DNA of 64,000 nucleotides, taken from Escherichia coli. GTDB lineage: Bacteria > Pseudomonadota > Gammaproteobacteria > Enterobacterales > Enterobacteriaceae. The notes beneath the pieces are model-generated. The model saw only the letters and a program-made list of their open reading frames with translations, had not been told where the DNA came from and ran no database searches. The translations under genes were made by a program, and so were the position numbers. The stretch lies in assembly GCF_016026235.1 (NCBI RefSeq), contig NZ_CP065613.1; one strand, given 5' to 3'. Below, in pieces: positions 54,072 to 54,492 of this stretch (the first letter of the stretch is position 1; every line of letters begins with the position of its first letter).

Positions 54072-54130
54072 ATTTAGCCAAAGCTATGTTTAGTGTATTT
54101 TTAATAATCAGACATAGCTTAGGCTATATT
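54072..54130. promoter_or_regulatory. two MntR-box-like palindromes upstream of mntP
   Basis: ATTTAGC-CAAA-GCTATGTTT (54072-54091) and ACATAGC-TTAG-GCTATAT (54111-54130) resemble the MntR operator AACATAGC-N4-GCTATGTT. Confidence 0.55.
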
Positions 54131-54261
54131 ATCTCTTCCCTTATTTGTTATTTATATTAACGTTTCATTGATATATAAATCTAAATGAAAATCGTTATCA
54201 ATAAAGCAATGAAATAATATATTCCAACAGTTGTTTTATATTCTCAAAATATGTTAAGGTT

Positions 54262-54380
54262 GCGCCCTCATTTGGGGAGTAGCCAATTTCCAGATTCCGG
54301 AAATGTACGTGTCAACATACTCGTTGCAAAACGTGGCACGTACGGACTGAACACTTTCAGTCAGGCGAGACCATATGCAC
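54262..54380 (+). ncRNA. yybP-ykoY manganese riboswitch in the mntP leader
   Basis: 5' leader contains GGGGAGUAGC, GUCAACAUACUCG and CAGGCGAGACC segments; position upstream of mntP matches the known E. coli Mn riboswitch. Confidence 0.55.
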
Positions 54381-54492
54381 ATCAATCGCTATGCCTGCAT
54401 GAACGCGAAAACCATCGCGGCTTGTTGTTCATGTATGCATGTTTGCTGGGGGCGATGATGTGTTTTATGGATACCCCGGTCAGGACGTTGTC

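Follow-up and report, generated by a model that had tools for sequence, protein, structure and literature searches.

The yobD-mntP intergenic region of Escherichia coli as the probable complete cis-regulatory region of mntP, overlaid by an accidental open reading frame

What is contained in the DNA between yobD and mntP of Escherichia coli: the control elements of a manganese exporter gene, or also a small gene of its own? The question is raised by an 81-aa open reading frame (ORF; 54251-54496, + strand), which lies open over both the promoter and the leader of mntP. All positions refer to the window, namely the whole stretch of 64,000 nt analyzed here (contig NZ_CP065613.1), of which position 1 corresponds to coordinate 1,851,196 of K-12 MG1655 and which is a 100% match to strain FDAARGOS_943. 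The interval from 53600 to 55100 is annotated with yobD, mntP and rlmA, and this stretch was found in 5418 of 5426 complete E. coli genomes. In the RefSeq annotation, the mntP coding sequence occupies 54493-55059 on the + strand and encodes a manganese exporter of 188 aa, which matches the Pfam family Mntp (PF02659, E = 1.7e-55). Positions 54072-54492, with a G+C content of 25%, coincide almost exactly with the yobD-mntP intergenic region. Our analysis indicates that this interval is very probably the complete cis-regulatory region of mntP, acting at two levels, that is transcription and a leader riboswitch, and that the 81-aa ORF is accidental. The MntR sites and the transcription start were reportedly mapped in Waters 2011 and Dambach 2015. 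Control of the promoter by MntR, Fur and H-NS, the yybP-ykoY riboswitch and Rho-dependent termination in the mntP leader have all been published already (PMC12153347; PMC11647493; PMC8632737), and the sequence-only reading of this DNA had rightly regarded the region as known E. coli biology. Direct, selective binding of Mn2+ (crystal structure and probing), Mn-dependent gene activation (reporter assays), the action of MntR, Fur and H-NS, and termination by Rho are taken here from the literature, while the present data concern the sequence elements, how far they depart from chance and how well they are conserved, as well as covariation in three structures, namely aptamer, OFF helix and helix C. 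The comparisons draw on 80 mntP loci from Enterobacteriaceae, which were gathered by protein alone, with no motif required.

The leader was delimited by means of published nucleotide numbering. In the mntP riboswitch, the L1 adenosine is numbered A11 and the L3 adenosine A48 (PMC12153347), and the sole start that puts an A of GGGGAGUAG at +11 and an A of CAACAUAC at +48 is 54268, which we infer to be the transcription start. The numbering is transferable because the leader is as long as its K-12 counterpart and differs from it at four positions (54285, 54352, 54417 and 54487), none of which lies in L1, L3 or the aptamer base pairs. Apart from these strain-level substitutions, the element is identical to the riboswitch in the 5' UTR of K-12 mntP (yebN; RF00080, PDB 4Y1M). 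Given this start, the leader would comprise 54268-54492, i.e., 225 nt, close to the earlier estimate of about 230 nt.

The leader harbors the conserved segments that had been ascribed to a manganese riboswitch, namely GGGGAGUAG (54274-54282), CAACAUAC (54313-54320) and GAGACC (54367-54372), and the ascription is borne out by covariation of the four-way junction around them. The predicted yybP-ykoY Mn2+ aptamer (54268-54378, + strand, nt 1-111) consists of P1.1 (54268-75/54371-78), L1 (54276-81 and 54367-70), P1.2 (54282-84/54364-66), P2 (54286-91/54299-304), P3.1 (54305-14/54334-43), L3 (54315-21), P3.2 (54322-25/54330-33) and P4 (54345-50/54357-62), all on the + strand. RNAalifold, given no starting structure, recovered P1.1, P1.2, P2, P3.1, P3.2 and P4 from 72 distinct orthologous aptamers, 17 of the 35 pairs being compensatory. 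A four-way-junction structure of 36 pairs, which was derived by hand from the sequence and guided by the literature fold and the Rfam alignment, is paired in 96.4% of cells and shows double changes at 17/36 pairs, with at least one in every helix; none of 500 shuffles reaches any of these measures, and structures slid by 1-3 columns are 24-46% paired. P1.1 itself covaries, as the C-G and A-U pairs of the E. coli type are U-A and C-G elsewhere. Nucleotides 7-15 and 100-103 of L1 are invariant in the 72 orthologous sequences, and so are nt 45-51 and 53 of L3, while nt 52 is at least 90% conserved. Together with a sub-threshold match to RF00080 (discussed below), these comparative data establish that 54268-54378 folds as a yybP-ykoY four-way junction, as far as sequences can tell. 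This is the architecture published for the mntP riboswitch, with P1.1 as the switch helix and with a crystal structure of the aptamer (PDB 4Y1M; PMC12153347). In the yybP-ykoY family, the junction of P1, P2, P3 and P4 is arranged as two coaxial legs.

Relatives of this element differ mainly in what follows the aptamer. Lactococcus lactis yoaB and Bacillus subtilis yybP/ykoY share its core, including L1 (GGGGAGUAG), L3, GAGA and the four-way junction. The yoaB and yybP/ykoY riboswitches work via an intrinsic terminator/antiterminator. Unlike them, mntP has a platform in which an anti-switch helix lies beside the Shine-Dalgarno sequence and which is coupled to Rho. The manganese/pH riboswitch of E. 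coli alx (ygjT) belongs to the same family, is translational and also precedes a Mn exporter gene; however, its junction is three-way for lack of P2, its L3 differs, and it contains intrinsic terminators and is responsive to alkaline pH (PMC12153347), whereas the mntP element has a P2 with covariation and a single switch helix.

The order of elements in the expression platform is common to all orthologues: GAGA is followed by the switch CCAUAnnnACAUC with a short CUGC-type segment, a variable hairpin and CUGGGGG, and 3' of the latter come the anti-switch GCAGUGAUGUGUnnUAUGG, CCCCGG, the AGGA Shine-Dalgarno sequence and AUG. The switch strand of the window, CCAUAUGCACAUCAAUCGC (54371-54389, + strand, nt 104-122), the first 8 nt of which are the 3' strand of P1.1, pairs with the anti-switch strand GCGAUGAUGUGUUUUAUGG (54452-54470, + strand, nt 185-203). 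The resulting helix competes with P1.1 and is part of the unconstrained minimum-energy fold; in 62 sequences it is 96.8% paired and 10 of its 17 pairs are compensatory, compared with 31-45% pairing in slid controls. The folding z of the leader is -3.07, and its minimum-energy OFF fold (-80.7 kcal/mol) is more stable than the aptamer-closed fold (-73.7 kcal/mol) by about 7 kcal/mol, which suggests that OFF is the default state. The location of the anti-switch at nt 185-203 fits the riboswitching point, which was mapped experimentally at a transcript length of ~205 nt (PMC12153347).

The inserted hairpin that separates the two strands (54390-54441, + strand) is the variable part of the platform, with a length from GAGACC to AUG of 75-128 nt among orthologues. 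It is absent from leaders of the Enterobacter/Kosakonia type, exceeds that of the sister Escherichia clades by 12 nt in E. coli proper, and matches the 'single helix' of the published structure (PMC12153347). A terminator-like hairpin with a T-rich tail (54404-54419) was considered and discarded, as it lies inside this variable hairpin, is found in E. coli proper only and is weakened by the K-12 substitution at 54417. Further downstream, helix C (54445-54480, + strand) is formed by GCUGGGG (54445-54451) and CCCCGGU (54474-54480). It is 99.3% paired, appears as GUUGGGG/CCCCAAC in four orthologues and contains two pairs with double changes, which probably go back to a single event. Its 3' end lies 1 nt before the AGGA Shine-Dalgarno sequence (54482-54485, + strand), which in turn is 7 nt before the AUG and is kept there as GGA or GAGG in orthologues.

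Arranged in this way, the elements would constitute a translational switch. Mn2+ bound between L1 and L3 would stabilize P1.1. In its absence, nt 104-122, made up of the P1.1 3' strand and the sequence that extends it, would pair with the anti-switch (nt 185-203), so that the mRNA would be translationally inactive and the untranslated leader would be exposed to Rho-dependent termination. With Mn2+, P1.1 would hold, the anti-switch would be free and mntP could be translated from AGGA/AUG at 54482/54493, and translation would partly shield the transcript from Rho. It has been reported that Rho terminates in the mntP leader and in the early ORF, and that Mn relieves termination partly via restored transcription-translation coupling (PMC11647493).

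The weights of the two outputs might also be reversed, such that the leader acts mainly by Rho-dependent premature termination, with Mn2+ altering the access of Rho, and control of translation initiation is secondary. Bicyclomycin raises mntP mRNA ~20-fold, which exceeds the effect of Mn, the termination sites are located within the leader and the early ORF, and in a purified in vitro system without ribosomes Mn restores run-off transcription (PMC11647493). Moreover, published probing found the ribosome binding site without a Mn-dependent change, and constrained folding of the ON and OFF ensembles here gave no consistent difference in Shine-Dalgarno accessibility, the outcome varying with the amount of coding sequence included. 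On the other hand, the relief from Rho in vivo is credited to restored coupling by the same paper (PMC11647493), the Mn response is seen in translational fusions (PMC12153347), and both the conserved helix C near the Shine-Dalgarno sequence and the anti-switch adjoining it suggest a translational output. A leader that works primarily through Rho is a possibility that we take seriously, though we would not expect it to prevail, and the two outputs are compatible with each other. Control of translation through the switch/anti-switch helix, presumably by way of Shine-Dalgarno access, with Rho acting on the untranslated leader, appears to be the better description.

The transcriptional level of control is represented by two palindromes that resemble the pattern ACATAGC-N4-GCTATGT, which we take to be the MntR box consensus. 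Operator 1, ATTTAGCcaaaGCTATGT (ATTTAGC-caaa-GCTATGT), extends over 54072-54089 with 2 mismatches, and operator 2, ACATAGCttagGCTATAT (ACATAGC-ttag-GCTATAT), over 54112-54129 with 1 mismatch. Relative to the inferred start they lie at -196 to -179 and -156 to -139, with centers ~187.5 and 147.5 bp upstream of it and thus 40 bp from each other. The motif scan, which was run as a mismatch-counted consensus pattern on both strands of the 64 kb, returned these two as the only matches with up to 2 mismatches, whereas 0.13 are expected, and two such matches were reached by only 1/100 shuffles; at 3 mismatches the pattern ceases to discriminate. The consensus was also checked against the K-12 promoters of mntH and mntS, both of which are described in the literature as MntR-repressed. 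In mntH the pattern occurs with 0 mismatches (ACATAGCcttTGCTATGT, 15-32 nt upstream of the ATG), and in mntS/rybA with 2 mismatches (ATATAGCacagGCTATAT, overlapping the 5' end of the annotated rybA transcript). Among the 80 Enterobacteriaceae loci, both boxes are present in nearly every one with enough upstream sequence; they are spaced 40-45 bp apart in nearly all orthologues, and their offset from the riboswitch is constant. Comparison of 61 distinct pairs of orthologous boxes showed (near-)invariance of the cores ATAGC and GCTAT and variation at all four spacer positions. Since they are non-random, match the mntH and mntS promoters and are kept as a pair with free spacers, the two palindromes are to be regarded, on this comparative evidence, as real and conserved operators of the MntR type. 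The two near-consensus boxes had been recognized by the sequence-only reading and are upheld here; the leader, to which its heading had allotted them, is not their place, as they are situated upstream of the promoter, 139-196 bp from the start.

MntR is stated in the literature to activate mntP at its promoter, at transcription initiation (PMC11647493), and Mn-MntR and Mn-Fur bind the promoter at high manganese and relieve repression by H-NS (PMC8632737). The operators of mntH and mntS (rybA) have the same 7-4-7 palindrome as the mntP boxes; however, they consist of a single box near the start of the gene or transcript, in contrast to the two boxes 40 bp apart and 139-196 bp upstream in mntP. 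A box close to the start fits the published repression of mntH and mntS by MntR, whereas the outcome at mntP is activation, reportedly by countering H-NS (PMC8632737). For the operators of a classical activator, 140-200 bp upstream is unusually far. Matches to mir-282, mir-4662 and other eukaryotic microRNAs at 54060-54141 were rejected as artifacts of the palindromic pair (12-26 bits, compared with cut-offs of 55-160).

The two boxes are inverted copies of each other, spacers included, and the palindromes might therefore be (or be in addition) the arms of one hairpin, serving as a 3'-end or terminator structure of the yobD RNA or as a DNA cruciform, rather than two operators only. The candidate hairpin has 19-nt arms that are 89% complementary and a 22-nt loop, begins 7 nt after the yobD stop codon, and is present in the minimum-energy folds of several orthologues; no other terminator-like site was found between yobD and the mntP promoter. 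The spacers differ between lineages, yet spacer 1 agrees with the reverse complement of spacer 2 at a mean of 2.28 of 4 positions, compared with 1.32 after permutation (0/2000 permutations reach the observed value), and the inner half-sites covary (A-U 36 vs. G-C 20). However, complementarity is inherent in any two copies of a single palindromic consensus, and arms could be kept alike without selection by shared ancestry or by templated quasi-palindrome mutation. Pairing extends to just 75.7% of cells, and in the spacer columns to 49-71%, whereas the riboswitch helices of the very same genomes reach 96-97%. Furthermore, neither of the two measures that withstand relatedness rises above shuffles (195/500 and 54/500), the AU-rich stem encloses a long loop, and the T-rich tract downstream is not conserved. 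An inter-box hairpin is therefore improbable in our view, and just as improbable is that the boxes, including their spacers, are kept for a dual use as operator and hairpin, either as terminator or stabilizer of the yobD 3' end or as a cruciform that affects occupancy by MntR or H-NS. The pair is best described as two operators.

Downstream of the operators, a phylogenetic footprint of 77 orthologues revealed a short conserved TTAAC block near 54157-54162 and, as the best-conserved upstream block, positions 54179-54201 (at least 90% conserved). The latter holds a Fur-box-like 19-mer, CTAAATGAAAATCGTTATC (54181-54199; about -87 to -69), which agrees with the consensus GATAATGATAATCATTATC at 14/19 positions. 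A match of this grade has a chance of ~6% in DNA of local composition, and the window contains 10 of them compared with ~1.4 in Markov resamples. Fur has been stated to act at the mntP promoter as well (PMC11647493; PMC8632737), and the block is provisionally assigned to Fur as a predicted box with a 14/19 match. The core promoter (54231-54267, + strand) is at least 90% conserved and would comprise a -35 hexamer TTGTTT (54231-54236), an 18-nt spacer and a TGn motif with the -10 hexamer TAAGGT (54252-54260), the hexamers being placed from the position of the start and from conservation. They are weak and were missed by a consensus promoter scan, which fits a silenced, activator-dependent promoter. 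At high manganese, Mn-loaded MntR and Mn-Fur would, according to the literature, bind in the upstream tract of 25% G+C and relieve silencing by H-NS, leading to more initiation.

In the 81-aa ORF, translation of this same DNA could be suspected on several grounds. In E. coli and three sister clades, no stop interrupts the frame anywhere in the leader, its terminal ATGA overlaps the mntP start, and automated pipelines call it, or a 40-aa version of it, in many E. coli records; a 27-aa Cys-rich frame (54375-54458) is another candidate for a leader peptide. However, outside E. coli and these three clades the frame contains stops, as found for E. albertii, Citrobacter, Salmonella, Enterobacter and the majority of other genera; in most genomes none of the three frames is free of stops. 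In many E. coli strains, moreover, it is broken by a 1-bp insertion (AAAACC to AAAACCC), and the frameshifted product is the 40-aa 'hypothetical protein' WP_000547919.1, which PGAP annotates in some genomes and which is found on at least 1000 contigs. The exact 81-aa sequence falls into a cluster of 114 members, and of the 15 members listed 14 come from automatic annotation of E. coli as 'hypothetical protein'. The ATG falls within the extended -10 element and precedes the inferred transcription start by 17 nt. Since MntP begins with Met-Asn, the ATGA overlap arises of necessity. A Pfam search with the 81-aa sequence gave no match, variable columns show no codon periodicity (18/19/19 at codon positions 1/2/3), and the curated K-12 annotation has no gene at this position, whereas RNA pairing fully accounts for the conservation. 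The AUG of the 27-aa frame lies in the switch strand and is missing from most orthologues, which have CCAUAG instead of CCAUAUG. Searches of the literature found no report of translation in the mntP leader, whether of a uORF or of a small protein, and the papers that came up only cite the MntS paper. The 81-aa ORF is thus an accidental open frame over a regulatory RNA and not a gene, as had been concluded from the letters alone, and the chances that this ORF, the 40-aa PGAP protein or the 27-aa frame is a real gene or leader peptide are very slim.

The Rfam model of the yybP-ykoY family gives a divided answer for this leader. At the gathering threshold, a default Rfam scan with RF00080 found no manganese riboswitch in the window, while with permissive filters 54266-54362 matches with 40.1 bits, compared with a gathering score of 45, and with an E-value of 2.1e-9 locally and 2.2e-7 for the whole window, where it is the only sub-threshold match with E < 0.01. 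The alignment does not extend beyond P4, and the P1 3' strand is missing from it. RF00080 matches all 16 of the orthologous leaders tested, with 35.5-53.1 bits, 6 of them above the cut-off and 10 below. Because orthologues straddle the cut-off and the E-value is significant, the shortfall reflects where the threshold lies for the enterobacterial mntP clade with its short P4, and not the absence of the element. The sequence-only reading had named the lack of a significant covariance-model hit as the outcome that would refute it; a default Rfam scan would return just this outcome, significance being given by the E-value only. That the resemblance to a manganese riboswitch arose by chance, for which the sub-threshold score and the empty default scan could be cited, is practically excluded and already refuted by the whole-window E-value, the matches in 16/16 orthologues and the strong covariation, which includes the P1 3' strand that the model leaves unaligned, with the invariant L1 and L3, the downstream Mn exporter gene and the published crystal structure of the same aptamer (PMC12153347) pointing the same way.

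The threshold has consequences for annotation. In 0/4 RefSeq records inspected was a riboswitch feature present at the mntP leader, which may be because the Rfam threshold misses the element, and where the feature is missing, gene calling sometimes yields 'hypothetical proteins' (81 or 40 aa) across the leader RNA. As regards biology, the weight of our findings is small, since the control region of mntP is textbook-level and structurally solved, and the comparative map of the platform, with switch, anti-switch and helix C all covarying, adds slightly to the published probing of ribosome binding site gating. The practical value lies in annotation, where a false negative at the Rfam threshold meets a recurrent spurious ORF call: the gathering score misses the experimentally proven mntP riboswitch of E. 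coli and about 60% of the enterobacterial orthologues tested, and flagging the 81- and 40-aa calls over the mntP leader RNA would stop a spurious gene from spreading.

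The experimentally proven riboswitch of E. coli mntP (window 54266-54362) scores 40.1 against RF00080, the Rfam model of the yybP-ykoY manganese aptamer, and is therefore missed at the gathering score of 45, as are 10 of 16 orthologous mntP leaders (loci L007-L079), which score between 35.5 and 44.2 bits. The RF00080 alignment to window 54266-54362 leaves out the 3' strand of P1, and no riboswitch feature is annotated at the position of the mntP leader in any of four RefSeq records examined.

Downstream of the aptamer, the expression platform contains an inserted hairpin (window 54390-54441) that varies between lineages. 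It is present in the leaders of Escherichia, Citrobacter, Klebsiella and Salmonella, where GAGACC lies ~107-128 nt from the AUG, and absent from Enterobacter/Kosakonia-type leaders, where this distance is ~76 nt. Compared with its sister Escherichia clades, E. coli proper has a further 12 nt in this hairpin, and these extra nucleotides form a terminator-like inner hairpin (window 54404-54419) with a T-rich tail, which is weakened in K-12 by a substitution at 54417. In many E. coli strains, a 1-bp insertion near window 54410-54413 changes AAAACC to AAAACCC and yields a 40-aa ORF, annotated by PGAP as the hypothetical protein WP_000547919.1 (L001:1276-1398 of the E. coli mntP locus, corresponding to window 54375-54496), which is found on at least 1000 contigs and shares an ATGA overlap with the mntP start. 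An alternative in-frame mntP ATG lies 54 nt upstream of the annotated start (window 54439-54492) and would give a 206-aa product; the start at 54493 is favoured over it because a conserved AGGA is located 7 nt before 54493 and because RefSeq annotates this position.

At its 3' end, mntP (+ strand) converges with rlmA (- strand) and shares 4 bp with it (window 55056-55059), so that no terminator would fit between the two genes. Elsewhere in the window, Rfam matches include a full-length sroD small RNA (window 35024-35109, - strand, 115.2 bits) and a 'cspA thermoregulator' (window 55956-56416, - strand, 135.7 bits); the gene underlying the latter is the paralogue cspC according to the K-12 annotation, hence this family model, which spans coding sequence, detects cspC too.

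Upstream of mntP, a short conserved TTAAC block (window 54157-54162) follows the MntR boxes and precedes the Fur-like box, ~110 bp before the inferred transcription start. At K-12 mntH, a perfect MntR box (L083:1422-1439) sits within the annotated small ORF ypeD (mntH upstream region, L083:1388-1477), which overlaps the mntH start. The two MntR operators of mntP could together form a hairpin with 19-nt arms, beginning 7 nt past the yobD stop codon (window 54072-54130), in which 75.7% of cells are paired. Across this region and its orthologues, the 4-nt operator spacers show a mutual complementarity of 2.28 of 4 positions, compared with 1.32 by permutation, the excess inter-operator complementarity, spacers included, also occurs in lineages whose spacers differ, and the inner half-sites covary between the operators (A-U 36, G-C 20). 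These patterns give weak support for conservation of the inter-operator hairpin.
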